Origin: Escherichia coli
GTDB lineage: Bacteria; Pseudomonadota; Gammaproteobacteria; Enterobacterales; Enterobacteriaceae
Length of the DNA: 64,000 bases
Strand: one strand, 5' to 3'
Assembly (NCBI RefSeq): GCF_003991155.1
Contig: NZ_CP031293.1
Part shown: positions 541 through 41,695 of the stretch, piece by piece
Layout: the number at the start of each line of letters is the position of its first letter
Numbering within the stretch: position 1 is the stretch's first letter
The notes under the pieces: model-generated
Databases searched by the model: none
What the model was told of the DNA's origin: nothing
Seen by the model: the letters and a program-made list of their open reading frames with translations, nothing else
Translations under genes and position numbers: made by a program

Positions 541-590
541 GCCCGGCCAGTCCCCTCGCCCCTCCGGGGAGAGGGTTAGGGTGAGGGGAA
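541..590. repeat. REP-like palindromic element (CCCCTC...GGGGAGAGGGTTAGGGTGAGGGG)
   Basis: GC-rich imperfect palindrome in gntP-fimH intergenic region; same motif family seen at 41.57 kb and 45.67 kb. Confidence 0.6.
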
Positions 591-21465: not shown

Positions 21466-21466
21466 T

Positions 21467-22633
21467 TTATTGTCCCCTCAGAAGAATATTCAAATAACTG
21501 GACTTGAGTTTACGAATTTTTTGAAGCCTTGATTTAGCTTCTCTATAACTGTTTTCGGCTAAATGTAATATATCCTTATATTTCCCAAGCTCTCTTGATG
21601 GTGGTATAACCATCTTCTGAGAATGTACATCGGCATCATTAACAGCCGGGAAACTTGTACCAACTGCCAAATTGGTTAATGAATAAGTGAATTGCTTCGA
21701 CAAAGTGAAATAATAAATAAAATCGGACAAATCATTTTTTGCCCTTAGAACAGTAAAACCTGTTGATGCTATTGAATCATTCAATATTTCAGACACATAA
21801 AACGTAGCTCTATGATTGGGTCTAACAGTGCTAACAACAATATCTTTTTCCTTAAGAATACGCCGAGCTCGGCTGGGGGCTTCAGCGAAATGGTATTCTT
21901 TAGGAGTATCGACAAAACCAGGAAAAGTCACTGAAGATATATCTATATACCTAATCAGCTTATTTTTATTGGCATCATTACTTAACAAGTCAAAATTAAT
22001 ATTTGATACATCCTTCAATCTAACTTTGTTATATCCAAATGGCAGTTTTTCTTTTCGATCAAATGTAGTCAACCGATCAATTAATCTTTGAAATAAATTT
22101 AATGCAGACCTTTCAGTCTCATTTGCACAATGTAATACTTGTTCGATTTTTTTTAAAGAATTTAAAAAATCAACTTGCAGATCCATTTCAGGAATAATAA
22201 ATTCCTGCTGACTTAAAACTTTCCATTTTATCGTTGGAGACAATGACCCCTCCGAAATTGCTACTGCACGATTCATGAAAGTATCAGACTGCATAATAAA
22301 GGGTAAAAACTCAGGTATTACAGTATTTGAATTTGCCTCCAGAACCATGGCATGAGCCGAACAGATACAATCCCAATCTGCTACCGCGACTTTACGTTGA
22401 TAAGCACGACGCTTACCAAAAATAATCTGGCCTTTTTTCACTAAAAGCTTCTGCCCTTCAACGTCACTGGGTGTACCATGACGTTTGATTTTCAGGCTGT
22501 CAGGGTCTAAATGCTCCAAACCGACATAAATTTCAAGGTCTGTCTCGCTCGGTTCCACTCGTTTAGAGATATGTTTAGCGATATCGCCAAACTTCACCAT
22601 TTGCCAGCCTTCAGGTAATTGCTGTTCTGTCAT
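21467..22633 (-). CDS. hsdS: type I restriction-modification specificity subunit (HsdS), two TRDs
   Basis: 388-aa protein with two variable regions separated by conserved spacer; second TRD coding region markedly AT-rich; abuts hsdM and hsdR. Confidence 0.85.
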   Translation of the reverse strand: MTEQQLPEGWQMVKFGDIAKHISKRVEPSETDLEIYVGLEHLDPDSLKIKRHGTPSDVEGQKLLVKKGQIIFGKRRAYQRKVAVADWDCICSAHAMVLEANSNTVIPEFLPFIMQSDTFMNRAVAISEGSLSPTIKWKVLSQQEFIIPEMDLQVDFLNSLKKIEQVLHCANETERSALNLFQRLIDRLTTFDRKEKLPFGYNKVRLKDVSNINFDLLSNDANKNKLIRYIDISSVTFPGFVDTPKEYHFAEAPSRARRILKEKDIVVSTVRPNHRATFYVSEILNDSIASTGFTVLRAKNDLSDFIYYFTLSKQFTYSLTNLAVGTSFPAVNDADVHSQKMVIPPSRELGKYKDILHLAENSYREAKSRLQKIRKLKSSYLNILLRGQ

Positions 22634-24133
22634 TTACTGCTCCACCTTGCTTTCAACGTTATATCCAAGCTCTGCAAGGCTCTGGAATAATTTATTAGTT
22701 TGCTTTTTCAACTGAGTACGGCTTACTTTCCACGCTTCAATCGCATGTTCAATATTATGTACTTCAGCGTTGTTTTGTGCTTGCACATACAGTGGAATTG
22801 AAAGGTTATAAAGGTTTTCTTTAATAGCTTCAATATTCACTAAAGAGGTTATATCGTTTTTTTTCTCCGGATTAAAATAAGCCTCGCATAATACCTCCAA
22901 ATCCTCATCGGATAAGCGACTATGAGCGCGTTCACGGGTAACATGCTCAACCCCGTTGATAAATAACACTTTATTTTTGCGTTCGGCAGGTTTATTGCAA
23001 TTAAGCACCACCACACAAGATTCCATCGGCGAGTTATAAAACAGATTTGGTCCCAAACCAATCACCGCTTCAATAATGTCCGATTCAATCACCTGTTTAC
23101 GAATGGCCTGCTCAGAATCACGGAACAGCACACCGTGTGGCCAGAGCATAGCAGCACGACCGGTATCGGGTTTTAAACTTTTAATTATATGGGTATAAAA
23201 AGCATAATCAGCGCAGCCCTGCGGTGGGACACCATAAAGATTTCGACCATACGGATCAGCAGCAAACTTGTCACGATTCCATTTTTTAATGGAGTACGGT
23301 GGGTTGGCAAAAATCACATCAAACTGCTTGAGCCGATCGTTTTCAATAAACTTTGGCTCAGCCAAAGTATCACCACGCAGCACATCAAACTCTTCAATAT
23401 CGTGCAGGAACATATTCATACGGGCGATTGCGGATGTCAGCAGGTTCACTTCCTGACCATAAAGGTGCACAGAGCGCCACTCTTCCCCTCTAGCACGCAG
23501 ATCCATCACTGCATTTAGCAACATCCCACCTGTGCCACACGTTGGATCATAGGCGGTTTCACCCGGTTTTAAGCCCATAATGCGCGTCATTAAATGCACG
23601 ACTGTTCGGTTGGTGTAGAACTCTGCTGCCGTATGACCGGAATCATCAGCGAACTTTTTAATCAGGTATTCGTAGGCCTCACCAAGATCATCCTGAGCGA
23701 CAGATTTAATGCCTAGCGGAATTTGACTGAAATGTTCAATCAGATCAGCCAGCAGATGATCGGGCAGGCGCTCTTTATTGGTCCACTGCGCATCACCGAA
23801 GACGCCATGTAAACGCGGATTATTGGCTTCAATTAGTCGAAGCGCATTCTGGATCGCTTCACCAATGTTTTTACTGGTATTGCGTACCTTTTCCCAACTG
23901 GCTTCAGAGGGAATGTTGAAACGGTGAAACATCGGCATGGCGGCATATTCAGCATCACCTTCATGGAGTTCCAGCGCTTCGTTATATTCTTCCAGATAGA
24001 CATCTGACAGGCGTTTGTAAAACAGCAACGGGAAGATATACTGCTTGTAGTCTGATGCGTCAATTTGGCCACGAAGAAATTCGGCGGCTCCCCAGAGCAG
24101 CTCTTCCAGCTTTTTATTACTCATAGTACTCAT
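22634..24133 (-). CDS. hsdM: type I N6-adenine methyltransferase subunit, paralogue B (499 aa)
   Basis: Motif I YDPTCGTGGMLL, motif IV FANPPYSIKKW; start overlaps stop of upstream hsdM paralogue (24130-24133). Confidence 0.85.
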   Translation of the reverse strand: MSTMSNKKLEELLWGAAEFLRGQIDASDYKQYIFPLLFYKRLSDVYLEEYNEALELHEGDAEYAAMPMFHRFNIPSEASWEKVRNTSKNIGEAIQNALRLIEANNPRLHGVFGDAQWTNKERLPDHLLADLIEHFSQIPLGIKSVAQDDLGEAYEYLIKKFADDSGHTAAEFYTNRTVVHLMTRIMGLKPGETAYDPTCGTGGMLLNAVMDLRARGEEWRSVHLYGQEVNLLTSAIARMNMFLHDIEEFDVLRGDTLAEPKFIENDRLKQFDVIFANPPYSIKKWNRDKFAADPYGRNLYGVPPQGCADYAFYTHIIKSLKPDTGRAAMLWPHGVLFRDSEQAIRKQVIESDIIEAVIGLGPNLFYNSPMESCVVVLNCNKPAERKNKVLFINGVEHVTRERAHSRLSDEDLEVLCEAYFNPEKKNDITSLVNIEAIKENLYNLSIPLYVQAQNNAEVHNIEHAIEAWKVSRTQLKKQTNKLFQSLAELGYNVESKVEQ

Positions 24134-25629
24134 ACCTCGAAACCTTCTTTGATAAGCAGGGCCTCCAGCTCCTCTTCTGCTTTTTCCAGCTCAGCCAGCT
24201 TCCGTTGAAAATCTTTGAGCGCCTCTTCCACAGTGATGGTTTCTTCTTCGAGTGGCTTTTGCACATAACGAGCAATATTTAGATTGAAGTCATTTTCTTC
24301 AATCTCCTTCAGAGAAACCCAGCGTGCAACGCCTTCGATTTCTTTTGCATCTGGCCCTTGTTGCGCCTGGTCATGATAGATTTGGTATATTTCATCGGCC
24401 TGCTTGTTGGACAGCGTATTCTGCGCACGTCCCTTGGTATAGATTTCTTCAGCATTGATGATCAATACATGATCTTTATGCGCGGCCGGACGTGATTTAC
24501 GCAGCACCAAAATACACGCAGGAATCCCAGTCCCATAGAACAGGTTGGAAGCAACACCAATAATCGCCACAATGCGATTCTCTTGCAGTAATTTGGTTCG
24601 AATTGCCCCCTCTGCGCCGCCACGAAACAGCACACCATGAGGTAATACGACTGCCATACGTCCATTGTCGTTAAGTGAAGCAAACATATGCTGCACCCAG
24701 GCAAAATCACCATTTGTTTTAGGCGCCAGGCCATATTGCTTACGGCCATAGGGATCGTTCGACCACAGATCGTATCCCCATTCTTTTAAGCTAAATGGTG
24801 GGTTGGCAACAACGCAGTCAAAGGTTTCTAAACGATCGCTTTTTAAAAATTTAGGTTCGCGTAAAGTATCCCCTCGGACAATATCGAAATCTTCCTGTCC
24901 ATGCAGGAACAGATTCATACGCGCAATAGCTTCCGTCGTTAAGTTCTTTTCCTGACCCTTGATTTTTAGTAAACGCGGATCACCACCATTTTCTTTTACA
25001 TGGTGGATGGTCTCAAGCAGCATACCACCGGTACCACAGGCGGGATCGTAGACACTCTCACCGGCTTTTGGATCAAGAATGTTAACCATCAAACGAACGA
25101 TAGTTCGTGGGGTATAGAACTCACCGGCTTTCTTATTGGCTTTGTCTGCAAAGCGTTTGATCAGATACTCGTATGCGCGCCCCATATCATCGTCACGGAC
25201 ACTAGAAACGCCAAGGTTCACCTTATTGAAGTGATTGAGTAACGTAGCCAGTAACTCATCAGAAAGGCGTTCTTTATTGGTCCAGCTGGCATCGCCAAAA
25301 ATGCCATGCAGTTTAGGGTTTGCCAGTTCTATACCACGGAAGGACTCTTTTAAAGCCTGACCGATGTCCTTGGTCTCAGCGAAAACATCGCGCCAGTGGC
25401 AATTTTCAGGTATCTGAATACGGTGAAACATCTTGCCCTTGGCAAGCTCTGCATCCCCAATGCTCTCCATCGCATCGGCAAATTCTTCGTCATACACGTC
25501 ACAAATGCGCTTGAAGAACAGGATGGGGAAAATGTACGTTTTGTAATCTGACGCATCAATGGGCCCTGTAATAATATGGGCTGCATGCCATAGATGGGCC
25601 TCGAGATCTTTTAGGTTAATCAGTGTCAT
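24130..25629 (-). CDS. hsdM: type I N6-adenine methyltransferase subunit, paralogue A (500 aa)
   Basis: ORF 24130..25731 trimmed to MTLINLKDLEAHLW; motif I YDPACGTGGMLL, motif IV VANPPFSLKEW; homologous over full length to paralogue B. Confidence 0.85.
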   Translation of the reverse strand: MTLINLKDLEAHLWHAAHIITGPIDASDYKTYIFPILFFKRICDVYDEEFADAMESIGDAELAKGKMFHRIQIPENCHWRDVFAETKDIGQALKESFRGIELANPKLHGIFGDASWTNKERLSDELLATLLNHFNKVNLGVSSVRDDDMGRAYEYLIKRFADKANKKAGEFYTPRTIVRLMVNILDPKAGESVYDPACGTGGMLLETIHHVKENGGDPRLLKIKGQEKNLTTEAIARMNLFLHGQEDFDIVRGDTLREPKFLKSDRLETFDCVVANPPFSLKEWGYDLWSNDPYGRKQYGLAPKTNGDFAWVQHMFASLNDNGRMAVVLPHGVLFRGGAEGAIRTKLLQENRIVAIIGVASNLFYGTGIPACILVLRKSRPAAHKDHVLIINAEEIYTKGRAQNTLSNKQADEIYQIYHDQAQQGPDAKEIEGVARWVSLKEIEENDFNLNIARYVQKPLEEETITVEEALKDFQRKLAELEKAEEELEALLIKEGFEV

Positions 25630-25872
25630 TGTTGTCTCTTTTCGATCCTGCAGTGCTTGAACTCTCAGCAACTCATGGATTTCACAGTAAAAAAGCAAGT
25701 AAAGCGATTCCACAACCACCTGAGCGTTCAATATGTATGACGCCTTTACCCAAGTTGCTTAAATCAAGGAAATTGCCAGAGATAATACTCTGGCATCAGA
25801 ATGATACCAAGTTGAAGGGCTGATTTCCGCATCAATACCTTGTGGTAATAGGGGATTACTCTTTTACCCTTA

Positions 25873-26910
25873 TTGGCGCAAAATGGCGGCATTTCCTCAT
25901 TTCTCCATCGGAGCATCTTACGCGCTATAACCACTCTCGTTTTTTCCTATTCCCATGCAGATGAAGCACTACGCAATGAACTTGAGAAGCATCTCTCCCC
26001 GCTGAAGCGAACCGGGAAGATCACAACATGGCACGATCGCCGCATCGTTCCTGGTCAGGAGTTCGAACGTCAGATCGACCACTATTTTTCGCAAGCAGAT
26101 ATCATCCTGATCCTGATCAGCAGTGACTTTATTGCTTCTGATTACTGCTATCAGGTAGAGATGAAAAACGCACTGGAACGGCATAACCGGGGCGAGGCAG
26201 TGGTCATTCCGGTAATTTTAAGAGACTGTGCATGGCATCAGTTAGAATTCGGCAGCATTATGGCGGCGACTATCGACGGTAAACCCATCACTAAGTTTGC
26301 CACCCACGATGAAGGCTACGTTCAGGTCGTCGAGGCTGTCTCGCGTGCCATTGCCCGGATGGAAGCCAAAAAACCACAGCAAACCATACATATCCCTTCA
26401 CCGGCTCCGGCGAATCCGATCTTTCAGGGAGTAGATTCCGTTTTTACACCGCGTTCAAGCAACCTTACTCTACCCAAGAAATTTACCGATCTGGATAAAG
26501 ATCGTGCCAGACGTGAGGGCTTTGAATATGTTGCCCGCTATTTTGAAAATTCGTTAGATGAACTCAAAAAGCGCCACCCCGGATTAGATATCGATTTTAA
26601 TCGGCTTGATACAGATTCATTCACCTGTGCCGTGTATATCAATGGCAGTAAGGTCGGCCAATGTGGCATCTGGCGAGGCAATCAACATCATGGAATGGGA
26701 GATATCTGTTATAGCCAGGATAATGTTGTTCGAAACAGTATTAACGAAACTCTAAGCCTTGCTGATAACGGCCAGACTCTTGGTTTTCGTGCTCTGATGG
26801 GAGGCTTCAGTCGAGGAACTTCACGAGACGAACTATTGACCAATGAAGGTATGTCGGAACATCTCTGGGAAATGTTCTTCGGGCTAATCAAGCAAAGAAT
26901 GTCCCGATAA
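25873..26910 (+). CDS. TIR-domain protein with uncharacterised ~180-aa C-terminal domain
   Basis: TIR-like N-terminus (VFSYSHADE..., WHDRRIVPGQEF, ADIILILISSDFIASDYCYQVEM with a Glu at the expected catalytic position); only in-frame start is TTG at 25873 and no clear Shine-Dalgarno, so the N-terminus is uncertain. Confidence 0.65.
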   Translation: MAQNGGISSFLHRSILRAITTLVFSYSHADEALRNELEKHLSPLKRTGKITTWHDRRIVPGQEFERQIDHYFSQADIILILISSDFIASDYCYQVEMKNALERHNRGEAVVIPVILRDCAWHQLEFGSIMAATIDGKPITKFATHDEGYVQVVEAVSRAIARMEAKKPQQTIHIPSPAPANPIFQGVDSVFTPRSSNLTLPKKFTDLDKDRARREGFEYVARYFENSLDELKKRHPGLDIDFNRLDTDSFTCAVYINGSKVGQCGIWRGNQHHGMGDICYSQDNVVRNSINETLSLADNGQTLGFRALMGGFSRGTSRDELLTNEGMSEHLWEMFFGLIKQRMSR

Positions 26911-26925
26911 TTTGCCATATCACAG

Positions 26926-26947
26926 TCGGGCATACTGCCCGATTTTT
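26926..26947 (+). terminator. rho-independent terminator downstream of the TIR gene
   Basis: Stem TCGGGCA/TGCCCGA with 3-nt loop followed by TTTTT. Confidence 0.65.
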
Positions 26948-27094
26948 GTGCTGTCATTATTGGCAATATCTCAATAGGCGTTGAGAAATGGTGCAATTTA
27001 ATCTTGCCAGAGCGCTGTTACTTGGGGACGAAATTAATGGGCTCCTGCTGTAGTTACAGCAACGCCTGTAAATACAAAAATAGGCGTTGCAAAT

Positions 27095-28150
27095 TCATGC
27101 TGGCAAATACGTTTTCTTAAGCGGCACCAATAGCTTAGTCTCTATATCCACTTGCTCATAGTTTTCAACTAACGCGCGTACCAAATCATCCAGCGTCCAT
27201 AGCGTCAACGGGATTGTAGAACGATCGGCCTCATAACGCGCATCCTTGCTGAATCCGCCGGTACTGACATACAGCCCGCGATCGTCTTTATGGCGGCCAC
27301 CGATAAAGCTACGGATTTGCTGGCTGCTCATCTGTTCCCGCCGGTGCTTCACCTCAACAATAATGCGCGGATTTTCAAACCCAAATCCGTCAGGCGAAGC
27401 AATGATGTCTTTCCCACGGTCAGCACCCGCAGGCGATACCTGAGTTTTATATCCCATGCTGCGTAACACGCCAGCGACCAGATTCTGCATCTCATCCCAG
27501 TCGAGACGGTTGATACGATCCTTGATGCCTTCAAAAGCGATCATTTCCATGTCGCGCAGAGGATTAGAAACGACCTCATCCTCTTCACCTGAAACAGGTA
27601 CTTCCGGCACGATATCTGAGACAGGCTTATTGCCCTGCACTAATTCATTCACAGCAAAATCAGGCACCTGAAAAACTGTCAGCGTTGAACCAAGGGTGTT
27701 TCTAGTTGCATCACTCAGACTATCGCGCTTAATCTCTTCCGCATTCCACTTCACTTTACGGGCGATGCCCATGCCATCTTCAAGCCACTCGGCATGAAAC
27801 TCAAAATCTGACGCTATTTTCCCTATTAAATAGGTCCGATTAGAAGGTGAATAAGTGATAGCCCAGTCGCCTTTCTGCATTTCATTCACAAAGCGCCAGA
27901 CCTGAGAAGCTCCAGAACGAACTGTGCCTGGCTTAGTCTGTGGCTCAAGCTCCTGATACCGGGTAAACAACTGCTCTCTTGAGCATCCAGGTTTCACATA
28001 GGGAGCGAGCTGCGACCAACCAATTGCAACAACCTGTTTGTCTCTGAAGTCGTCGTACAATTTTCCGCCATCACCGCGGATCATCCACATCTTAGTCGCC
28101 ACAATAATTCCTTCTGAAAATACTTCATCGTTATACCGGGACGTGATCAT
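27095..28150 (-). CDS. Mrr-family (PD-(D/E)xK) restriction endonuclease with N-terminal PUA/EVE-like putative modified-base reader; probable type IV enzyme
   Basis: C-terminal domain alignable with E. coli Mrr catalytic region (DIIASPDGFG...IIVEVKHRR...LYVSTGGFS); start set at ATG 28150 preceded by AAGGTGG; N-terminal RFVNEMQKGDWAITYS resembles EVE-domain core. Confidence 0.7.
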   Translation of the reverse strand: MITSRYNDEVFSEGIIVATKMWMIRGDGGKLYDDFRDKQVVAIGWSQLAPYVKPGCSREQLFTRYQELEPQTKPGTVRSGASQVWRFVNEMQKGDWAITYSPSNRTYLIGKIASDFEFHAEWLEDGMGIARKVKWNAEEIKRDSLSDATRNTLGSTLTVFQVPDFAVNELVQGNKPVSDIVPEVPVSGEEDEVVSNPLRDMEMIAFEGIKDRINRLDWDEMQNLVAGVLRSMGYKTQVSPAGADRGKDIIASPDGFGFENPRIIVEVKHRREQMSSQQIRSFIGGRHKDDRGLYVSTGGFSKDARYEADRSTIPLTLWTLDDLVRALVENYEQVDIETKLLVPLKKTYLPA

Positions 28151-28212
28151 TCCATTCAGCCACCTTATCCAGGGGAAAAACACCGATAAGATGGCTAATC
28201 AAAATGTCTGTT

Positions 28213-31200
28213 CTAAACCTGACGCCTATCAAGACTATTATAAATAGCCTCAATCTCACCTTTCAGGTTATCACCAGAGTAAACCATCGATGTATCGTAT
28301 CGTTCATATCGCGCTTCCCGTGTCGCACTAAACCAGTTGAACGATCCCACGCATAGCAAACCATCATCACCAATAACAATTTTGCTATGAACACGGTTTA
28401 CCAGCTTTGTAGCAATACCCAGCGCATTCAGTTTCTCCAGCGCCGCTTTAAGGTTCTGCTGCTTCTCTTTTCGCTTCTCAAAATCTTTATGTTCAGTGTT
28501 GTAGCTTCTGTCAGTGACTATCGTGACGTTAATACCACGTGAACACGCCGCAATCATGGAATCAAGAAAACCCGTTTGCTCCAGCTTTTGCCAGGTCAGC
28601 CATGGAGAAACTATCGTGATGTGTTTATCGGTATTTTCAAACGTCTGATTCAGGAAGTTATCATGCTGCTCCACACCATGAAGTGTGTAGATTTTGGTCT
28701 CGGAAGTTTTTAAATCCTTACGCTCTTTATAATCAAAAGAGAGCGCATTCTTCTCGAACTCAAAGAGATATTTTGCCAGCAATCCTCGCGGAGATGAGGG
28801 AGCCTGGATCTCAAACAGATCCATATCGCCGAAGACCAGGAAGCTATCCTTCGCACGGGAGACTGCAACATTCAGCATGCTGTTATCGCTATCAATAAAC
28901 CCGCCGTCTTCATGTTTTGAATAGACTGGCGAGAATATAACAATCGCTCTTTCCGCTCCCTGAAGAGAGTGCACGGTGCCCACTGTGAGCGACTTTTCAT
29001 TCGCGCCCGTACTGATACCTTGTTTACCCAGCGCCTGTTTTATAGTGGATACCTGCGCGCTAAAAGGCGTCACGATACCGACAACTTCATGAAGCGATTT
29101 GCCGTAATGCGCTTCAATATTTTGCTGGTTCTCTGCCAACCAGGCCGCTATCGTTTCAGCCTCAAGCAAATTATATCTACTTCCACTACTTGCCTGCTCT
29201 CCTTTACCATCAATATGGAGATAACCCATTGCGGGCATTAAATTGCTCTCTTCACGCCCTCTTTTAGGCAACAACTTACCGTGATAGCAGAGCGTATTAC
29301 AGTATCCAATAATATTATCGAAGCACCGGCGGTGTTCATATAGGTACATACCACGAGCCAGTTCGGGATCATATTGATAGCGCGAAGCAAACTGCGCTAT
29401 TTTCATAACGCTGCCAGATGCGGCACTTTTACCAAGGTCTGCGATTGCCGTATATTTCTCGGTAATCTCTTCTTGCGTACTGCCAGACAGAATTTTTTCC
29501 GCCAGCATGTTACCGACATCAATCGCGGGAGCAATACTCCATATTGGCGGGATCTGCTCCGTATCGCCAATCACTAATGCCTTCTTAGCTAATGCAAACG
29601 AGGCAGCAGCCACTTCAGGAAGCACCTGCCCGGCTTCATCGACAATGAGTAAATCGGCAAAATCATACAAATAACTTTTCTCGAATTTACGTTGTCCTTT
29701 GTGCTCACTTATCTGCATATTGCCGGGCAGCATATAGCATGTCATCACCACACATGGAGTGAGTTTCATTCGACGTTGCCAACGGGCGGTTACCCCTTTA
29801 GCGCCTTGTTTCTTCTTCTCTTCCTGCAGATCATCAATTCTGGCCATATCCATCAGCCAACGACCTTCCCAGTAGTGAGTCGTCAGTAAAAATGCAGGGA
29901 AGCGAATCTGCGTATCAGCCAGTTCATCGGCCTGTGAGAAGCTCAGTTCCTCGTCGCCCTCATACCCTAAATCAAATGCCAGCCTCTGCCACTCCTGAAC
30001 CGCCTGCTGTTCTTTAAGAACGATTTCATGGGCGGAGTCAATCTGCTGCCGGTATGTTGTTTGCTCGCGCTCAGCGGAATTGAGCAGCCCATCAATATTA
30101 CGTTCGATAGTTTCAGGATCAGACCACTGATTTCCTGCAATCAGCGCGCCTAATTTATCTTCGAGAAACAGCTGTATTTGGTACTGTCGCTTATTGCGAA
30201 CCGCCGGGAGCCAGGAAAATAATGAATAGATCAGTGATTCACCGGCGCGATATTTTTTCCATTCCGTTTTAGCACTCTTCAGTAGAGTGACTTTTTGTTC
30301 TTGTCCGGAAAGTAATTTATTTAAATTATCGAGATATTGCTCAATATCATTAGCAATAAGCTCACGCGCAGCCCGAATCTGGCTTAACATTTGCCATGTT
30401 GCGTTCAGTCTTATCAGTTGCTCGGATTTTGCTGCCAACTGACCATGCAGGAGTTCAATGATCTTTTCAGGGGATGAACACTCTTTTTCAGGAAAGGCTG
30501 CCTTAGCCTTCTCCAGATAAAACAGCAGTGCATCCTCTACATACTCTTTTGACTCAACCTGGGTGAAGAAATCTTCAGTTTGATATTTTTTGGCTGCCTC
30601 AGCTTTACGAGTGCTTGAGGGAAAATAAGCGCCGAAGCTTTTCAGCTCTGGCAACCATCGTCCGGCCATCGCACCTGAACCTTGCGAAAAGTCTTTCCCG
30701 AATGCCTCAATAATGTTCGTTACAGCCTGGTTATTCGTTGAAGTCGCGATAATAACCGGAGGCTCAGATTTTTCGAGAGCTGCTCTGGCCCACTGCGTGG
30801 CGATGATAGAAAGCACCAGCGTGGTTTTTCCGGTTCCCGGAGGTCCATTAACAGCAAGGATATCGCCATGTCTTGCATCCAGAAAATGGCTTAAGGCATC
30901 GCGCTGAGCCTTTGCCAGCGGAAACTTATCTCCGGAGTGTCCAAGCCTGTCGCTGAATTTTGCTCCTGGGGCCAGCAAAGACTCTGCAGCATGAACCTCT
31001 CGCGAGGCGAAGCGATTGAAGAGCGGCACATCCTTCTTGCAAACAAGCAGGTGATCATAAAGAGAAAGGATATGGAAACTGGCACCGCCAGATTGCGCCG
31101 TTTTAACAATATAACCGTGCTCAGCGAGTACATATTGCTCAGGATTTTTAATCCAGTCGCCGGCAACATTCTTCAGCAGCCTCTCTGAATCATCCAGATA

Positions 31201-31728
31201 TTGACGCCACTCCTGCTGCAAGGCTGCATATCGTGCTTCCCGTTCTTCATCCGTTTCGGCAGTCTTATCAATGCTGTCATCAAAGTTGATAGAGAACGAG
31301 GTATGGATTGTCTTGTATTTGTCATACTGCCCAATATCACCAATCGAAAATGCTCCTTTTGGCAAAGGTTCAAGCAGGTCTCTGGGAATGGAGGTCGCTG
31401 GCGTCGGATATAAAAAACCCTCACGGCTTAGCAAGGCTGGCGTCACTAGCGGGGTAACAATATCAGGTGCGCCTGCGGAACGGTCCTTACCATGCTGCAG
31501 TAACCGAAAATAAACTTTTGGGCGCAAGACGACATCGACCGTTTCGACATCGTCTTTTTCTCCCTCAAAAAATTTACTGACAATCGCTTCGTCAAGACGT
31601 CCCGCCGCTATCCCATGCCAGTGAGTGAAATTTTTGGCGTCTTTCCGTTCAAAACTGCCCTTTCCTGACTCAGCATCTGCAAGCGAGTTGCGCCAGTATG
31701 AGGCAAACCCTAAAGCATTTTCATCCAT
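28213..31728 (-). CDS. SF1 (Upf1/DNA2-like) helicase fused to C-terminal PLD-family nuclease, 1171 aa; architecture resembles type II Mokosh
   Basis: Walker [13 protein letters not shown], Walker [10 protein letters not shown], helicase motifs [16 protein letters not shown] and [12 protein letters not shown]-terminal HKD motif [20 protein letters not shown]. Confidence 0.75.
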
Positions 31729-32053
31729 TACCAGTCCTATGACTCAATGAAATCCATTGATTTATCGAATATAAAATCACCGTATGGATAACTATTGTCC
31801 ACGTTGAAAGGCTGGCTGCAATGTTTTGTTCACGCTTCGATACAAATACTCAGGTTATACGGAGTTCAGAAAACGACCATATCATGTTGCATGGCACATA
31901 AAAGCTTTATAACCGAAGCAGCAAAGGATTACCGGCTGCGCAGCACGCCCCGAAAGCCCGTGAGCCCTGCTGGACAGCGTTCAGTGCAATATTGGAGCCT
32001 GTAAGTTCAGAAAATATCGCTGTCGAAGATGGTTCTGTATGTAGGCGCGCCAG

Positions 32054-32431
32054 CTATCGTTTTGTCCGATGCTTGCGAATAAAAGCATTCAAAATGTCGC
32101 CTTCACCATGCATGACAGAAAAAGAATATTCACATTCTTTCTTTATCAAGATTCCACATAATTCCTGGTGCAAATCAACATTAACTCCCTTTCCTTTCTG
32201 CGCTTTCTTCACACCGAGCTCACATGAACTGATTAATTCAACGTTACAGGGTTTCTTCAAACAATTCACACCATCAATTAAGCCATGGAGAATGCATCTA
32301 TTTGCGGTCGTATCACTGTAGGAGAAAGTCAGATATTTTATTTTTCCTTCGCATTCCAGCACAATTTCCGCCGAACCTTCACGTGTTGCAGCATCACAAC
32401 CTCCTGTTGAATATATTTTTACCATCTTCAT
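32054..32431 (-). CDS. small RNase HI-like protein (125 aa) lacking the catalytic acidic residues
   Basis: Alignable by eye with E. coli RNase HI (VKIYSTGGC vs VEIFTDGSC; TTANR vs TTNNR; NVDLHQEL vs NVDLWQRL) but D10, E48, D70 positions are T, I, S/C; good SD (AAGGGG) before ATG. Confidence 0.6.
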   Translation of the reverse strand: MKMVKIYSTGGCDAATREGSAEIVLECEGKIKYLTFSYSDTTANRCILHGLIDGVNCLKKPCNVELISSCELGVKKAQKGKGVNVDLHQELCGILIKKECEYSFSVMHGEGDILNAFIRKHRTKR

Positions 32432-32499
32432 TTTGTAACTTTCCCCTTACCAAACGAATCGCGACATCCTATATCAAAGGCATTCTCGTCAAAACTTAA

Positions 32500-33279
32500 T
32501 TATCTCAGTAAATTCTTCCGATGCCACTCCAGATAACAATACGATTCAACAGAAAACGCCTTTATTTTCTCCGGCAACAAACATTGCTCTTTAACGCTAA
32601 TATCCAGCGCCTTACTAATTAATAAATGCCCATCGTTCTCAAACGAAATCCATCCCTGATCGAATAGAATATCAATATGCGCAGCCAATATAATTCCATT
32701 AAAAGGATCAAGACGTTCATTTCCATTCTCGCAGGCAGCCCACGGCTTTATATGGCTGGCACGCAGTAAAGGTGCAAAAGTCGTTCCCGTAACAGGGCAT
32801 GCCGGATACAACATGAGACAATTTTTCCGAAAGGTACCTTGCCCCAGCCGTGCCGCAATCAGCTGCTCGCGTACGGTATCTTCAATACTTTTATCCTGCT
32901 GAATAGCAAGACAGTCTCGTTGTGCCTGTTCATCTCCAGCAGAAGATATTAACGAAAGAACGCGCTGCTCAATCGCACTGTCTGAAAGCACACTCATTCG
33001 CTGATACACACGCTGCGCTGAATGAGAAAGCGCAGCAGGAGCGCCCTGCTCGTCAAGCCAGCCGACACGTACATCACTAAGCCAGGAATCAAAACGGTCA
33101 CGACTATTTTTCAGACTATTGTGAAACTCACTGGCAGTTTTGCCCGCTCCAAATCGAGGATAAAACAAGGCAAAAGCCTCTTTCCATTTCTGAACACCCA
33201 GTCCTGCGGGTGGTTGAGATTTTCCGTACTTCGACAAATACCACGCCACTTCAAGCAAATCGTCTTCAGAGCTATTCAA
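32500..33279 (-). CDS. HNH-family endonuclease with uncharacterised N-terminal domain (259 aa)
   Basis: C-terminal HNH-like motif ...ASHIKPWAACENGNERLDPFNGIILAAHIDILFDQGWISF; TTG start (first in-frame ATG is ~100 codons in). Confidence 0.6.
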   Translation of the reverse strand: MNSSEDDLLEVAWYLSKYGKSQPPAGLGVQKWKEAFALFYPRFGAGKTASEFHNSLKNSRDRFDSWLSDVRVGWLDEQGAPAALSHSAQRVYQRMSVLSDSAIEQRVLSLISSAGDEQAQRDCLAIQQDKSIEDTVREQLIAARLGQGTFRKNCLMLYPACPVTGTTFAPLLRASHIKPWAACENGNERLDPFNGIILAAHIDILFDQGWISFENDGHLLISKALDISVKEQCLLPEKIKAFSVESYCYLEWHRKNLLR

Positions 33280-33621
33280 TATTACGTCCTGTTTTTGCAG
33301 AGTAAATTATCACCAGATTATATCTGAAAAGATCGTTTACTAAACTGATCTGCTTACCTGCAAAACGGTACTGCAAACGCTAATACTCAGAACCATTAAG
33401 AGGAACAAGCAGGTGCATTCCGCTGCCATCGGTCAGTTTGTATTGCTTATCCCCTGCCTCTAGGTACAAGCATTTTCGAAACGGAAATACCATCATCTGT
33501 TGGTAGATGTACGTTGAAGTTGGTTCGCCTTGAGAGAGTTAATATAGCGGGAATGATAGGTAAATACTGGATTCCAGGCACAAAAAAAGCCGCCCTTGAG
33601 CGACTCGATTTGCATACGATG

Positions 33622-33706
33622 TGGTGCCGAAGGCCGGACTCGAACCGGCACGTATTTCTACGGTTGATTTTGAATCAACTGCGTCTACCGATTTCGCCAC
33701 TTCGGC
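33622..33706 (-). tRNA. leuX: tRNA-Leu (CAA anticodon), 85 nt
   Basis: Reverse complement folds as cloverleaf: acceptor GCCGAAG.../...CTTCGGCACCA, anticodon loop with CAA, long variable arm; adjacent to ahr as in K-12. Confidence 0.95.
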
Positions 33707-34924: not shown

Positions 34925-35488
34925 TCATTCGCAGCGCTGATCTGAGGCGCTGCCCCCTTTCGCACATATTCTGTCTTGTCGTATCGCCAGCACGGCCTGC
35001 CGACATTGTTCGGTGACATTGGCAATATCATGGTTGATATCAATGCGCACAATATCCTGTTCATCTGCTTGTGGACGCTCCAGCGCCTCAAACTGACTTT
35101 TTAGTAACGCTACCGGCATAAAATGCCCAGCCCGCCGCTGCATTCGCGCGAGAATAGTTTCATAGTCGCCATCTAACCAGAGGAAATGAACATGGGGGCT
35201 ACCCTTGCGTAAAATATCACGATACTGTTTTTTTAATGATGAACAGACAATAAATCCTGTTTCATTCTTTTTATAAAGACTGTATGAAGCATCATTTAAG
35301 CGTTCCAGCCAGGGAAGTCGATCTTCATCAGATAATGGAATACCCTGCGACATTTTATCTATATTTTTGGCTGGATGAAGATCGTCACCATCAATAAATT
35401 TAGCAGATAATAACGTGGCAACCTTGCTACCAATTAATGTTTTACCACTCCCTGAAACGCCCATCAAAATAAAGCTTTCACCCGCCAT
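34925..35488 (-). CDS. idnK: gluconokinase (thermosensitive, IdnK)
   Basis: 187 aa; P-loop GVSGSGKT; divergent from idnD. Confidence 0.9.
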   Translation of the reverse strand: MAGESFILMGVSGSGKTLIGSKVATLLSAKFIDGDDLHPAKNIDKMSQGIPLSDEDRLPWLERLNDASYSLYKKNETGFIVCSSLKKQYRDILRKGSPHVHFLWLDGDYETILARMQRRAGHFMPVALLKSQFEALERPQADEQDIVRIDINHDIANVTEQCRQAVLAIRQDRICAKGGSASDQRCE

Positions 35489-35589
35489 TTAAAATCTCCT
35501 GAATCATCTTACCTGCTGCGATACTACGCCTGGTGGCATAATAATTTCACGTTTTTTTATTTCTGCTGATAAGAATTACAAGGCACATC

Positions 35590-35620
35590 ACGTTATGCGT
35601 AACATAATAATGTAACAATT
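35590..35620. promoter_or_regulatory. putative LacI-family (IdnR/GntR) operator in the idnK-idnD divergent promoter region
   Basis: Near-palindromic GTTATGCGTAAC and repeat TGTAACA seen in the 216-bp divergent intergenic region. Confidence 0.35.
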
Positions 35621-35704
35621 TTCTGACGTGATCTTCATCACAAATAATGACAATTAAAACCGCTTAAATGCTTCCGAGGTGTCTACCTGACCAGTGAGGA
35701 ATTT

Positions 35705-36736
35705 ATGCAAGTGAAAACACAGTCCTGCGTTGTTGCGGGCAAGAAAACTGTTGCCGTTACCGAGCAGACGATAGATTGGAATAATAATGGAACATTAGTA
35801 CAAATAACCCGAGGTGGAATTTGCGGTTCCGATTTACATTATTATCAGGAAGGAAAAGTAGGTAATTTCATGATAAAGGCACCGATGGTGTTAGGTCATG
35901 AAGTTATCGGTAAAGTTATTCATAGCGACTCATCAGAATTACATGAAGGGCAAACGGTAGCCATTAATCCGTCTAAACCGTGCGGTCACTGCAAATACTG
36001 CATTGAACATAACGAGAATCAGTGTACAGATATGCGTTTTTTTGGCAGTGCCATGTATTTCCCTCATGTTGATGGTGGTTTTACCCGTTATAAAATGGTC
36101 GAAACGTCGCAATGTGCCCCTTATCCGGCCAAAGCTGACGAAAAGGTTATGGCTTTTGCCGAACCTTTAGCCGTCGCGATTCATGCCGCACATCAGGCCG
36201 GCGAGTTACAGGGCAAGCGAGTATTTATTTCCGGTGTTGGGCCCATTGGCTGCCTGATTGTCAGTGCAGTGAAAACACTGGGGGCCGCGGAAATTGTCTG
36301 TGCTGATGTGAGTCCCCGTTCCCTTTTGCTGGCCAAAGAGATGGGGGCGGATGTGCTCGTAAACCCACAAAACGACGATATGGATCACTGGAAAGCGGAA
36401 AAAGGCTATTTCGATGTCAGCTTTGAAGTGTCCGGTCATCCTTCATCAGTGAATACCTGTCTGGAGGTCACTCGTGCACGCGGCGTAATGGTGCAGGTAG
36501 GGATGGGAGGCGCGATGGCAGAATTCCCAATGATGACGTTGATTGGTAAGGAGATTTCACTCAAAGGCTCTTTCCGTTTTACCAGCGAATTTAATACCGC
36601 AGTGTCATGGCTGGCGAATGGCGTTATCAATCCACTGCCTTTACTGAGTGCTGAATATCTCTTCACTGACCTGGAAGAGGCGCTACGTTTCGCCGGTGAT
36701 AAAACCCAGGCAGCAAAAGTCCAGCTTGTTTTCTAA
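35705..36736 (+). CDS. idnD: L-idonate 5-dehydrogenase
   Basis: 343 aa zinc-dependent MDR dehydrogenase (GICGSDLHYY, GHEVIG); operon position. Confidence 0.9.
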   Translation: MQVKTQSCVVAGKKTVAVTEQTIDWNNNGTLVQITRGGICGSDLHYYQEGKVGNFMIKAPMVLGHEVIGKVIHSDSSELHEGQTVAINPSKPCGHCKYCIEHNENQCTDMRFFGSAMYFPHVDGGFTRYKMVETSQCAPYPAKADEKVMAFAEPLAVAIHAAHQAGELQGKRVFISGVGPIGCLIVSAVKTLGAAEIVCADVSPRSLLLAKEMGADVLVNPQNDDMDHWKAEKGYFDVSFEVSGHPSSVNTCLEVTRARGVMVQVGMGGAMAEFPMMTLIGKEISLKGSFRFTSEFNTAVSWLANGVINPLPLLSAEYLFTDLEEALRFAGDKTQAAKVQLVF

Positions 36737-36759
36737 GAGATAAATAAAGGAATAATACA

Positions 36760-37524
36760 ATGAACGATCTATTTTCACTGGCAGGAAAAAATATCTTGAT
36801 TACCGGTTCAGCACAGGGCATTGGCTATTTACTGGCAACCGGCCTGGGTAAATATGGCGCACAAATAATTATTAATGATATTACTGCCGAACGCGCAGAA
36901 CTTGCTGTAGAAAAACTCCACCAGGAGGGTATTCAGGCCGTTGCCGCACCTTTTAATGTTACTCATAAACATGAAATTGATGCCGCCGTTGAACATATCG
37001 AAAAGGACATCGGCCCCATTGATGTGCTGGTGAATAACGCCGGTATCCAGCGCCGTCATCCTTTTACTGAGTTCCCTGAACAAGAGTGGAATGATGTGAT
37101 CGCAGTAAACCAGACCGCCGTGTTCCTGGTGTCGCAAGCGGTAACTCGTCACATGGTTGAACGCAAGGCGGGTAAAGTTATTAATATTTGCTCGATGCAA
37201 AGCGAACTGGGACGTGACACCATCACCCCTTATGCCGCATCGAAAGGAGCGGTAAAAATGCTCACCCGCGGCATGTGCGTCGAGCTGGCGCGCCACAATA
37301 TTCAGGTCAACGGTATTGCGCCGGGCTATTTCAAAACAGAAATGACTAAAGCACTGGTTGAGGACGAAGCCTTCACCGCCTGGTTGTGCAAACGGACCCC
37401 CGCCGCACGCTGGGGCGATCCGCAGGAACTGATTGGTGCTGCGGTGTTCCTTTCTTCAAAAGCCTCTGATTTCGTAAACGGCCACCTGTTGTTTGTTGAT
37501 GGCGGCATGTTAGTGGCTGTTTAA
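36760..37524 (+). CDS. idnO: 5-keto-D-gluconate 5-reductase (SDR family)
   Basis: 254 aa; TGSAQGIG Rossmann motif, catalytic YAASK. Confidence 0.9.
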   Translation: MNDLFSLAGKNILITGSAQGIGYLLATGLGKYGAQIIINDITAERAELAVEKLHQEGIQAVAAPFNVTHKHEIDAAVEHIEKDIGPIDVLVNNAGIQRRHPFTEFPEQEWNDVIAVNQTAVFLVSQAVTRHMVERKAGKVINICSMQSELGRDTITPYAASKGAVKMLTRGMCVELARHNIQVNGIAPGYFKTEMTKALVEDEAFTAWLCKRTPAARWGDPQELIGAAVFLSSKASDFVNGHLLFVDGGMLVAV

Positions 37525-37588
37525 CAGCCACCACCCTACGTGCAGCGCGAAAGCGCTGCTTTTCTGGCACTAATAAGAGATAAAGACT

Positions 37589-38908
37589 ATGCCATTAATC
37601 ATTATTGCGGCAGGCGTCGCGCTGCTTCTTATCCTGATGATCGGCTTTAAAGTTAACGGCTTTATTGCCCTCGTTCTGGTCGCTGCCGTCGTCGGATTTG
37701 CCGAAGGGATGGATGCACAGGCCGTCCTGCACTCTATACAAAATGGTATCGGCAGCACGCTCGGCGGGCTGGCAATGATCCTCGGTTTCGGGGCCATGTT
37801 AGGCAAGCTGATTTCTGATACGGGCGCGGCACAACGTATCGCCACTACGCTGATTGCTACTTTTGGTAAAAAACGCGTGCAATGGGCGCTAGTGATCACC
37901 GGTCTGGTTGTGGGCCTCGCCATGTTTTTTGAAGTGGGTTTTGTCCTGCTGCTGCCGTTGGTATTTACCATCGTGGCATCATCTGGATTACCCCTGTTGT
38001 ATGTTGGCGTACCGATGGTAGCAGCGCTCTCTGTAACCCACTGTTTTCTGCCGCCACATCCAGGGCCTACTGCCATCGCGACTATCTTTGAGGCTAATCT
38101 CGGAACGACTTTACTGTATGGATTTATCATTACCATTCCGACAGTTATTGTCGCAGGACCGCTGTTTTCTAAACTGCTAACTCGCTTTGAGAAAGCACCA
38201 CCGGAAGGCTTATTTAATCCTCATCTGTTTAGCGAAGAGGAGATGCCCTCCTTCTGGAACAGTATTTTCGCTGCCGTGATCCCGGTCATCCTGATGGCTA
38301 TCGCCGCCGTTTGTGAAATTACGTTACCGAAAACTAACACCGTGCGCCTCTTCTTTGAATTTGTCGGTAACCCTGCCGTTGCGCTGTTTATTGCCATTGT
38401 TATTGCGATTTTCACACTGGGCCGACGTAATGGACGCACCATCGAGCAAATCATGGATATCATTGGGGATTCTATAGGCGCTATCGCGATGATTGTGTTT
38501 ATTATCGCTGGCGGCGGCGCGTTTAAGCAGGTATTAGTAGATAGCGGTGTCGGGCAGTATATTTCACACTTAATGACCGGAACTACACTTTCGCCGTTAT
38601 TGATGTGCTGGACTGTTGCGGCGCTGTTGCGTATCGCTCTGGGCTCTGCCACAGTCGCGGCCATTACCACCGCGGGTGTGGTGTTGCCGATTATCAACGT
38701 TACCCATGCCGATCCCGCTTTAATGGTACTGGCAACCGGTGCGGGCAGCGTGATCGCGTCACACGTAAACGACCCTGGCTTCTGGCTATTTAAAGGGTAT
38801 TTTAATCTGACGGTTGGTGAAACGTTGCGTACCTGGACGGTGATGGAAACCCTTATTTCTATTATGGGTTTGCTGGGCGTGTTAGCCATTAACGCCGTAT
38901 TGCACTGA
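37589..38908 (+). CDS. idnT: L-idonate/5-ketogluconate/gluconate transporter (GntP family)
   Basis: 439-aa polytopic membrane protein, paralogue of the gntP fragment at 1..483. Confidence 0.9.
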   Translation: MPLIIIAAGVALLLILMIGFKVNGFIALVLVAAVVGFAEGMDAQAVLHSIQNGIGSTLGGLAMILGFGAMLGKLISDTGAAQRIATTLIATFGKKRVQWALVITGLVVGLAMFFEVGFVLLLPLVFTIVASSGLPLLYVGVPMVAALSVTHCFLPPHPGPTAIATIFEANLGTTLLYGFIITIPTVIVAGPLFSKLLTRFEKAPPEGLFNPHLFSEEEMPSFWNSIFAAVIPVILMAIAAVCEITLPKTNTVRLFFEFVGNPAVALFIAIVIAIFTLGRRNGRTIEQIMDIIGDSIGAIAMIVFIIAGGGAFKQVLVDSGVGQYISHLMTGTTLSPLLMCWTVAALLRIALGSATVAAITTAGVVLPIINVTHADPALMVLATGAGSVIASHVNDPGFWLFKGYFNLTVGETLRTWTVMETLISIMGLLGVLAINAVLH

Positions 38909-38974
38909 AAGAATAAAATATTGTGATGTAGTTTCGGGGGAAGATTGAAGATTCCCCCGACGTTGGGAGAAGTT

Positions 38975-39973
38975 ATGCGCAATCACAGAATTTCTTTACA
39001 GGATATCGCTACGCTGGCTGGCGTAACAAAAATGACCGTGAGTCGTTATATCCGCTCGCCGAAAAAGGTGGCAAAGGAAACAGGCGAGCGCATCGCCAAA
39101 ATTATGGAAGAGATCAATTATATCCCTAATCGCGCTCCCGGCATGTTGTTGAATGCACAAAGTTATACCCTCGGTATCTTGATTCCGTCATTTCAAAATC
39201 AACTCTTCGCTGACATTCTCGCGGGAATAGAATCCGTCACCTCTGAGCATAATTATCAGACCCTTATTGCTAATTACAATTACGATCGCGATTCCGAAGA
39301 AGAGTCGGTGATTAACCTGCTCTCTTATAACATTGACGGGATTATACTTTCGGAAAAATATCACACCATCAGGACGGTGAAATTTCTGCGTTCAGCCACC
39401 ATTCCGGTCGTGGAATTGATGGATGTACAGGGAGAACGGCTGGATATGGAGGTCGGTTTTGATAATCGGCAGGCCGCTTTTGACATGGTGTGTACCATGC
39501 TGGAGAAGCGAGTCAGGCACAAAATTCTGTATCTCGGTTCCAAAGATGACACCCGCGATGAACAGCGTTATCAGGGGTATTGCGATGCGATGATGCTGCA
39601 TAATCTTTCCCCATTACGCATGAATCCACGCGCCATCTCATCCATTCATTTAGGAATGCAGTTAATGCGTGATGCCCTTAGCGCAAACCCGGATTTAGAC
39701 GGTGTATTTTGCACCAATGACGATATTGCGATGGGTGCGCTTCTGCTGTGCCGCGAGCGAAACCTCGCCGTGCCAGAACAAATTTCCATTGCGGGTTTTC
39801 ATGGGCTGGAGATTGGCAGGCAAATGATCCCAAGCCTCGCCAGCGTAATTACTCCCCGTTTTGATATTGGTCGGATGGCCGCCCAAATGTTGCTGAGCAA
39901 AATTAAGAATAACGATCACAACCACAACACTGTTGACCTCGGGTATCAGATTTATCACGGTAACACGCTTTAG
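38975..39973 (+). CDS. idnR: LacI-family transcriptional regulator IdnR
   Basis: ORF 38945..39973 trimmed to [26 protein letters not shown] (HTH); periplasmic-binding-like effector domain. Confidence 0.9.
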
Positions 39974-40050
39974 GTTATTTTCTCTTCATTACACATATTC
40001 TCTTTGCCGGACGTTGCCTATACTCCAGGCAGGAAACTGGAGGAAATCTC

Positions 40051-41553
40051 ATGAGCGAACCCCTGTTAATTGCCCGCACGCCGGACACAGAACTGTTTTT
40101 ACTGCCGGGAATGGCTAACCGTCACGGGCTGATTACTGGCGCAACGGGGACGGGTAAAACTGTCACGTTGCAAAAACTGGCAGAGTCATTGTCGGAAATC
40201 GGTGTTCCGGTGTTTATGGCCGATGTGAAAGGCGATCTGACCGGCATCGCGCAGGCAGGAACGGCGTCGGAAAAACTGCTCGCAAGGCTTAAAAATATCG
40301 GCGTCAACGACTGGCAACCGCATGCCAATCCGGTGGTGGTGTGGGATATCTTTGGCGAGAAAGGCCATCCGGTGCGGGCGACGGTTTCGGATCTGGGGCC
40401 GCTGTTGCTGGCACGACTGTTGAATCTCAACGATGTGCAATCTGGCGTGCTGAATATTATCTTCCGCATTGCGGACGATCAGGGATTGTTGCTGCTCGAC
40501 TTTAAAGATTTGCGGGCGATTACCCAGTACATCGGCGATAACGCCAAATCCTTCCAGAATCAGTACGGTAATATCAGTAGCGCATCGGTTGGTGCCATCC
40601 AGCGCGGGCTGTTATCGCTGGAACAGCAAGGCGCGGCGCACTTTTTTGGTGAGCCGATGCTGGATATCAAAGACTGGATGCGTACCGATGCCAACGGTAA
40701 AGGCGTTATCAATATCCTCAGCGCCGAGAAGCTTTATCAGATGCCGAAACTGTACGCCGCCAGCCTGCTGTGGATGCTTTCAGAATTGTATGAACAATTG
40801 CCTGAAGCGGGCGATCTGGAGAAACCAAAACTGGTGTTTTTCTTCGACGAGGCACATCTGCTGTTTAACGATGCACCGCAGGTACTGCTGGATAAGATTG
40901 AGCAGGTGATAAGGCTTATTCGCTCAAAAGGCGTGGGCGTCTGGTTCGTTTCGCAAAACCCGTCTGATATTCCGGATAATGTGCTCGGGCAGCTAGGTAA
41001 TCGCGTTCAGCACGCTTTGCGGGCTTTTACGCCAAAAGATCAGAAAGCAGTGAAGGCAGCGGCGCAAACCATGCGGGCCAATCCGGCATTTGATACCGAA
41101 AAGGCAATCCAGGAACTGGGGACCGGCGAGGCGTTAATCTCGTTTCTCGATGCAAAAGGAAGTCCTTCTGTGGTGGAACGGGCGATGGTGATCGCACCTT
41201 GTTCGCGAATGGGGCCGGTGACGGAAGATGAGCGTAATGGCCTGATTAATCACTCCCCGGTGTATGGCAAATATGAAGATGAGGTGGACCGCGAGTCCGC
41301 CTATGAGATGCTGCAAAAAGGCTTTCAGGCCAGTACCGAGCAGCAAAATAATCCCCCCGTGAAAGGGAAAGAGGTGGCGGTGGATGACGGTATTCTTGGT
41401 GGATTGAAGGATATTTTGTTTGGCACTACCGGACCACGCGGCGGGAAGAAAGATGGTGTGGTGCAAACAATGGCGAAAAGCGCCGCTCGCCAGGTGACGA
41501 ATCAGATTGTACGCGGGATGTTGGGGAGTTTGCTGGGGGGGAGAAAAAGGTAA
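40051..41553 (+). CDS. yjgR: DUF853-family P-loop NTPase YjgR
   Basis: 500 aa; Walker A GATGTGKT; synteny. Confidence 0.85.
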
Positions 41554-41564
41554 GTCAGACGTGA

Positions 41565-41650
41565 TCTGTGCCCCTCACCCTAACCCTAACCCTAACCCTA
41601 ACCCTAACCCTCTCCCCAAAGGGGCGAGGGGACCGTTCGAACTCGTATTT
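41565..41650. repeat. REP-like element containing a (CCCTAA)5 hexanucleotide microsatellite (41578-41607)
   Basis: CCCCTCACCCTAACCCTAACCCTAACCCTAACCCTAACCCTCTCCCCAAAGGGGCGAGGGG; other copies of this element in the window (541-590, 45669-45705) carry one CCCTAA unit. Confidence 0.8.
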
Positions 41651-41695
41651 GACTTTGTCAACAATAATAAAGGGAGCTTTCGCTCCCTTGTTAGA

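Follow-up and report, generated by a model that had tools for sequence, protein, structure and literature searches.

A CCCTAA Hexamer Array of Variable Length Inside a BoxC/PIT/TM_ECO Element Between yjgR and lptG of Escherichia coli

The yjgR-lptG Locus

The window analyzed here is a 64,000-nt stretch of Escherichia coli DNA (contig NZ_CP031293.1) that includes the convergent genes yjgR and lptG and, between them, an array of five perfect CCCTAA hexamers. Features of the locus, together with the other copies of the surrounding element in the window, are listed in Table 1. The anatomy could be read directly from the sequence, and this reading confirms the number of units and their position as given by the first-pass annotation. 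The run that keeps a period of six without error extends from 41577 to 41611. Tandem Repeats Finder reports a span longer than the array (41572-41611, 6.7 copies, 97% matches), because the flanking hexamers CCCTCA and CCCTCT are near-copies of the unit. Its score of 73 is the second highest among the 19 rows returned for the window. The strongest tandem repeat there is a 24-bp unit present twice at 53289-53336 (TTTAGATTGATCGCAGCTAAAATC, 95% matches, score 89), and an 18-bp repeat at 53788-53831 scores 53. Not even the two-unit match CCCTAACCCTAA appeared when the window was shuffled 100 times with its dinucleotides preserved.

Table 1. Positions of features at the yjgR-lptG locus and of the other BoxC copies in the window.
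Feature	Position	Strand	Description
Second BoxC copy	~551-590	-	fimH-gntP intergenic region; one CCCTAA unit
yjgR	40051..41553	+	HerA-like helicase C-terminal domain protein
Whole BoxC/PIT/TM_ECO type A element	41571..41630	-	CCCTCGCCCC-TTT-GGGGAGAGGG-(loop 2)-GGGTGAGGGG
Block 3 of the motif	41571..41580	+	CCCCTCACCC; minus strand GGGTGAGGGG; proposed third strand of the triplex
Hexamer array	41578..41607	+	(CCCTAA)5, perfect; minus strand (TTAGGG)5
Expanded loop 2	41581..41607	+	TAA(CCCTAA)4, 27 nt; canonical 3 nt (TTA on the G strand)
Watson-Crick hairpin	41608..41631	+	Block 2 CCCTCTCCCC, loop 1 AAA, block 1 GGGGCGAGGGG; from predicted folds and inverted repeat
Intrinsic-terminator-like hairpin	41670..41689	-	Just past the lptG stop codon; AAGGGAGC GAAA GCTCCCTT then TATTATTGTT
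lptG	41696..42778	-	LPS export ABC transporter permease; convergent with yjgR
Third BoxC copy	45669-45701	+	pepA-holC intergenic region; one CCCTAA unit

The array lies within a palindromic repeat in the space between the two genes, as had been annotated; the inverted repeat and the gene coordinates both bear this out. The element begins 17 nt beyond the end of the yjgR stop codon, and the array is likely inside the yjgR 3' untranslated region. On the other side, the terminator-like hairpin separates lptG from the array. At this locus the element is 60 nt long in the window, compared to 36 nt in the one-unit allele.

Element Family

On the minus strand the one-unit form reads CCCTCGCCCC-TTT-GGGGAGAGGG-TTA-GGGTGAGGGG, and the three blocks and loop 1 of the window element agree letter for letter with the TM_ECO type A motif mm (Table 1 in PMC4666352). 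Judged by its sequence, the element is BoxC/PIT/TM_ECO type A, a published intrastrand-triplex motif, which was earlier named BoxC and later PIT, for “potential intrastrand triplex” element (Holder et al., 2015, PMC4666352). The three consecutive blocks of 9-10 nt (one C-rich, one its G-rich complement, one a G-rich mirror) are all present in the window, and dispersed intergenic copies are numerous, with three in the window, none of them inside a gene; the median number of matching places in an E. coli genome is 12. The BoxC/PIT element is reportedly the subject of work by Bergler and Bachellier in the 1990s and by Hoyne and Maher in 2000. Further points of likeness are a catalogued orthologue, the yjgR-lptG element of strain SMS-3-5, which is TM_ECO no. 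159 in Supplementary Table S8 (NC_010498, 4843415-4843450; PMC4666352), and the reported association of TM_ECO with variable intergenic regions (PMC4666352).

The window allele differs from the published motif in loop 2. Loops were described there as about 3 nt for loop 1 and as TTA (type A) or CCG (type B) for loop 2, with a search range of 1-6 nt (PMC4666352). Loop 1 of the window element (TTT) fits this description, whereas loop 2 is TTA(GGGTTA)4, that is 27 nt in place of the 3-nt TTA of the canonical motif; one-unit orthologues fit in both loops. Because the search was limited to loops of 1-6 nt, the expanded allele could not enter the published TM_ECO catalogue. The terms CCCTAA, TTAGGG and “hexamer” occur nowhere in the main text of PMC4666352, and GGGTTAGGGTTAGGG is absent from two of its supplementary files. 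In the literature library searched, no paper was found that connects yjgR to a tandem repeat. What is new is a length-polymorphic loop 2 in a known element.

The first-pass annotation had called the element REP-type and the array telomere-like, and neither description survived closer inspection. REP and BIME sequences resemble it in being E. coli intergenic repeats that are short, rich in GC and imperfectly palindromic. However, the window element belongs to another sequence family, with a different block structure and a hexamer periodicity: the REP core motif GCCKGATGCGRCGY has no match in 41540-41700 with up to two mismatches allowed, and the blocks are those of TM_ECO type A. Elsewhere in the window, GCCKGATGCGRCGY matches at 618 and 59430, which look like REP copies. 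The first of these belongs to a REP-like sequence at 600-660 (core match 618-631) that adjoins the fimH-gntP BoxC, so that both families occur in one intergenic region.

With eukaryotic (TTAGGG)n telomeres the array shares the identical hexamer and a similar predicted potential for G-quadruplex and i-motif formation. In contrast to telomeres, which lie at the ends of linear replicons, it is internal to chromosomes recorded as circular, has five units only, derives from BoxC and gives no hint of end protection. The resemblance is a coincidence, as TTAGGG stems from the GGG-TTA-GGG junction of the motif.

Allele Series in E. coli

To compare unit number among strains, we used a 321-bp query covering the locus, which matched 5,425 of 5,426 complete E. 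coli genomes; 1,797 of these aligned over at least 80% of the query. Alleles were counted from the match spans, a second query carrying a compound allele, a 68-nt element query and 24 fetched loci that were read directly. Results are summarized in Table 2.

Table 2. Alleles at yjgR-lptG in complete E. coli genomes, where A is CCCTCA, B is CCCTAA and C is CCCTCT.
Allele	CCCTAA units	Genomes	Comment
A-C	0	3	
A-B-C	1	~1,740	All 19 full-length matches sampled evenly below the top five-unit match span 297 bp
A-B2-C	2	2	
A-B3-C	3	1	TUM11353, divergent flanks
A-B4-C	4	2	
A-B5-C	5	34	Allele of the window
A-B6-C	6	4	Two read directly, two inferred from 99.4% identity
A2-B5-C		1	(CCCTCA)2(CCCTAA)5
A-B4-C-B-C		8	(CCCTAA)4-CCCTCT-CCCTAA

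All length differences among these alleles are multiples of 6 bp, and no allele of 7-9 units appeared in the ranking positions where one would be visible. The comparison across E. coli genomes proposed by the first-pass annotation thus finds differing alleles, and the five-unit array is not universal. The suggestion that the array could be a strain-variable marker stands in that unit number ranges from 0 to 6, with two compound alleles besides, and falls short in its use, as multi-unit alleles are confined to about 1% of complete genomes (those of ST457, ST1722 and a few other types). Its practical value is modest: array length can be read by PCR, and at least four units set ST457- and ST1722-related haplotypes apart from other E. 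coli, with a little added resolution within ST457.

Perfect head-to-tail units, a number that varies among strains and single-unit changes on backgrounds that differ by 0-1 SNP make the array a variable-number tandem repeat (VNTR). It resembles the hexamer loci used in bacterial MLVA (CVN loci) in its 6-bp unit, its strain-varying copy number and its single-unit steps within a clone. It is, however, far less variable than, for instance, CVN014 within ST131, and it is multi-unit in about 1% of genomes only.

Since CCCTAA is the telomere unit of vertebrate and plant type, and such repeats can contaminate assemblies, we considered whether the array might be an assembly artefact or eukaryotic telomeric sequence. 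This is exceedingly improbable. The array sits exactly between BoxC blocks, the same five units are present in 34 independent complete assemblies, and other genomes differ from these by whole units. The window also matches the genome of CREC-544 perfectly over 40,321 bp. Identical alleles in 34 genomes that were assembled independently, from several continents and hosts, make an artefact very unlikely.

Most of the remaining ~3,600 genomes align to the query in two pieces and have different intergenic content. The yjgR-lptG intergenic region occurs in alternative forms across E. coli, with BoxC present in about one third of genomes. Genomes of the K-12, O157:H7 and UTI89 types give a two-piece alignment with a 339-bp span, and in a further class only the lptG-proximal third of the 321-bp query matches. 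K-12 MG1655 has a genuine REP, gcctgatgcgacgctggcgcgtcttatcatgcc, at this site instead (window 41554-41695 compared with positions 415-574 of the extracted K-12 locus).

Genomic Background of the Alleles

The window is 100% identical over the 40,321 bp matched to CREC-544, which is the ST457 reference of a published study (PMC9860340). SNPs were compared at 11,339 shared positions in 22 genomes (11.3 kb), and different alleles were observed on near-identical backgrounds. All seven of the five-unit genomes that were fetched are identical to the window at these positions. CUVET19-1704, with four units, has 0 SNPs relative to the window, and FDAARGOS_1268 and EC-10, with six units, have 1 SNP each. 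More distant are AR_0077 (four units, 27 SNPs), the compound-allele group that includes TCM3e1 (ST1722; 86-95 SNPs) and the two-unit genomes, which are 118 and 217 SNPs away from the window and 254 SNPs apart.

Within the ST457-type haplotype there are 5 variable sites in 20 kb among 11 sequences (10 fetched genomes and the window). Given these few sites and the backgrounds that differ by 0-1 SNP, the alleles with four, five and six units are recent single-unit steps. At least two such events took place; 5 variable sites are too few for a tree of their order within ST457. The two- and three-unit alleles arose independently in other backgrounds.

About 85% of ST457-type genomes have five units, which marks the tract as only moderately unstable, not hypervariable. 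Five units is the common state of the window's ST457-type haplotype, and the number is still changing by single units within the clone. The stability of the one-unit form across ~1,740 genomes is as expected if instability rises with tract length.

Identity to the window around the array extends for about 12 kb in AR_0077 and about 5 kb in TCM3e1, and both diverge further out. Lineages with alleles of four to six units show 0.2-0.8% divergence elsewhere in the region and are identical for 5-12 kb around the array. Identity over this length amid divergence suggests that homologous recombination, beside vertical descent, may have spread the expanded allele.

BoxC Copies at Other Loci and in Other Species

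The window contains exactly two further copies of the element, in the fimH-gntP and pepA-holC intergenic regions (Table 1), and each has a single CCCTAA unit, in agreement with what had been noted at first pass. As controls, we queried these two loci with synthetic four-unit versions. Expansion of the pepA-holC BoxC was found in none of the genomes with this query. The fimH-gntP BoxC is 6 bp longer in four genomes; in the one inspected (SCU-116) the added hexamer is a duplicated AGAGGG, not TTAGGG. A genome-wide search of all 5,426 genomes with the 68-nt element query found at least four units only at the yjgR-lptG copy, and no other E. coli BoxC locus had three or more CCCTAA units. Variants of other kinds were seen at two further loci. 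The frlR-yhfS BoxC carries a 12-bp duplication of CCCTAACCCTCT (A-B-C-B-C) in both genomes inspected, VTB97432v and UPEC85, and the recX-recA BoxC of 14EC033 contains (CCCCTC)3.

We also scanned one genome per species from 100,044 species with the pattern (CCCTAA)3CCCTCTCCC. Arrays of at least three units beside CCCTCTCCC were found in 12 species representatives, from unrelated species, and in most cases a recognizable hairpin comes next. Buttiauxella agrestis has six units, a Rhodoferax MAG five and Lelliottia nimipressuralis four; further carriers among the 12 are Serratia, Klebsiella spallanzanii, Sinorhizobium glycinis, Cellvibrio, Schlesneria and a Chloroflexi MAG. A locus-specific scan of JGI metagenome contigs for alleles of two or more units gave 0 matches. 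Expansion is rare yet recurrent, and its recurrence in 12 species, together with the slippage variants at other E. coli BoxC loci, points to a property of the element family. BoxC/TM_ECO, which is statistically tied to intergenic variability, would thereby gain a concrete mode of internal instability, hexamer and dodecamer slippage, that the published search for triplex motifs, limited to loops of 1-6 nt, would miss.

Origin of the Array

The array is very probably a microsatellite that grew by replication slippage inside BoxC and is probably selectively neutral. We infer slippage as the mechanism from the allele series. The element itself is an imperfect three-unit hexamer repeat, CCCTCA-CCCTAA-CCCTCT, in which CCCT recurs every 6 bp across A-B-C and therefore offers sites where strands can misalign during replication. 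Duplication of the middle unit (B) would first create a perfect 12-bp repeat, from which further gains and losses of one unit could follow; 6- and 12-bp duplications that involve the neighboring units occur too. In the published motif, loop 2 is the TTA linker that joins the hairpin to the third-strand block, and the expansion lengthens it from 3 nt to 27 nt.

The TTAGGG strand is presumably the lagging-strand template, mainly on the basis of synteny with K-12: the window corresponds, in reverse complement, to the region around 4.486 Mb of the K-12 record, which lies on the clockwise replichore. GC skew is -0.03 over the window and about 0 in its core part, which lends the strand assignment weak support.

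Alternatively, the array could have arrived already expanded, through recombination or gene conversion, with a different BoxC copy or a different species as its source. Expanded arrays do exist in other Enterobacterales, and the 5-12 kb of identity around the array that ST457, AR_0077 and ST1722-type genomes share, while diverging elsewhere, is a sign of recombination. However, the 5,426 genomes offer no E. coli donor, given the lack of other BoxC loci with three or more units, and the sequence directly on either side of the array does not differ from that of one-unit E. coli alleles. Growth in place predicts intermediates, such as those observed with two, three and four units, and also the single-unit changes seen on backgrounds 0-1 SNP apart. 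We consider import highly improbable as the origin of the array, which recombination does not explain even though it may have contributed to the spread of the expanded allele.

Position and Possible Function

Both convergent genes have the array on their 3' side, and a search of 41300-41900 found no promoter-like sites. On these two grounds a promoter or phase-variation (contingency) locus was rejected, and the array is most likely neutral, a reading that follows from its position. A functional role is unlikely when the position, the lack of a nearby promoter and the good lptG terminator are taken together with the Rfam search, which returned chance-level matches only (E-values 0.31 and 0.84, far under gathering scores), and with the majority of E. 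coli genomes having no expansion or no element at all.

The case for function comes mainly from predicted structure. On the minus strand the array region has 8 G runs and 6 overlapping starts of a G-quadruplex motif (at least four runs of three or more G, loops of 1-7 nt), compared to 4 G runs in the one-unit form. With at least four units, the loop of the hairpin is predicted to contain a complete (GGGTTA)3GGG quadruplex on the G strand, with a folding energy of about -36 to -38 kcal/mol vs. -22 for one unit (RNA parameters). On the yjgR-sense strand, the longest G-free C-rich tract just past the stop codon is 50 nt, up from 26 nt, and the highest C/G ratio over 78 nt is 2.83, up from 1.67, a composition like that of Rho-loading sites; this tract is unpaired in predicted folds. 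The expansion might act on replication or transcription through a telomere-type G-quadruplex on the TTAGGG strand, with an i-motif on the C strand, or through Rho loading that limits antisense read-through into lptG. The five-unit allele has also been retained by 34 genomes, which come from several continents and host species.

We regard such a function as unlikely. The quadruplex and Rho-loading effects are predictions, the array is downstream of both genes, and a G-rich RNA would form only by read-through of the good lptG terminator. For the parent element, an intrastrand triplex is known in vitro for the canonical 36-mer only, published work found no structure signal in vivo, and Maher and colleagues, as cited there, found PIT elements to be without promoter or terminator activity (PMC4666352). 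Alleles of four, five and six units coexist in one clone, ~1,740 genomes have one unit and in roughly 3,600 the site holds other content, all of which speaks against a requirement; clonal descent by itself would account for the retention of five units.

A somewhat more specific version, which we would call a long shot, is that the expansion is non-neutral because the longer loop 2 would turn a triplex-type BoxC into a G-quadruplex/i-motif tract or a 50-nt G-free Rho-loading site, altering yjgR-lptFG termination or fork progression. If so, the five-unit state might have been favored in the globally spread ST457 clone, and the natural series of 0-6 units would be a ready-made titration of non-B DNA effects in vivo. 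Under the preferred reading of a neutral microsatellite, the same series, located at one orthologous site, still offers a possible test of triplex and quadruplex effects in vivo.

Other Features of the Region

Several differences among the extracted loci fall outside the array. In UID2309220003, a run of G6 in place of G7 at the 3' end of yjgR (extracted locus ~10090-10280) leads the annotated yjgR coding sequence to read through the array and overlap lptG; this is probably a homopolymer sequencing error, not a real fusion. In WB61, a 122-bp tandem duplication directly follows the pepA-holC BoxC and covers the upstream region and start of holC (extracted locus ~14240-14460, corresponding to window ~45706-45830).

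An idnK-idnD-idnO-idnT-idnR (L-idonate) cluster lies between ahr and yjgR (window ~34925-39975). It is missing from LR-28, NCTC9064, CFSAN061771 and WB61, where ahr adjoins yjgR. Beside a leuX-type tRNA-Leu (~33622-33706), on its upstream side, is an island at window ~21440-33440 whose cargo comprises type I restriction-modification genes, a TIR-domain protein, a restriction endonuclease, a large AAA protein and an HNH endonuclease. The cargo at this tRNA-Leu differs in other strains, where it is Zorya, Dpt phosphorothioation restriction, BrxR, or an integrase together with a phosphoethanolamine transferase.
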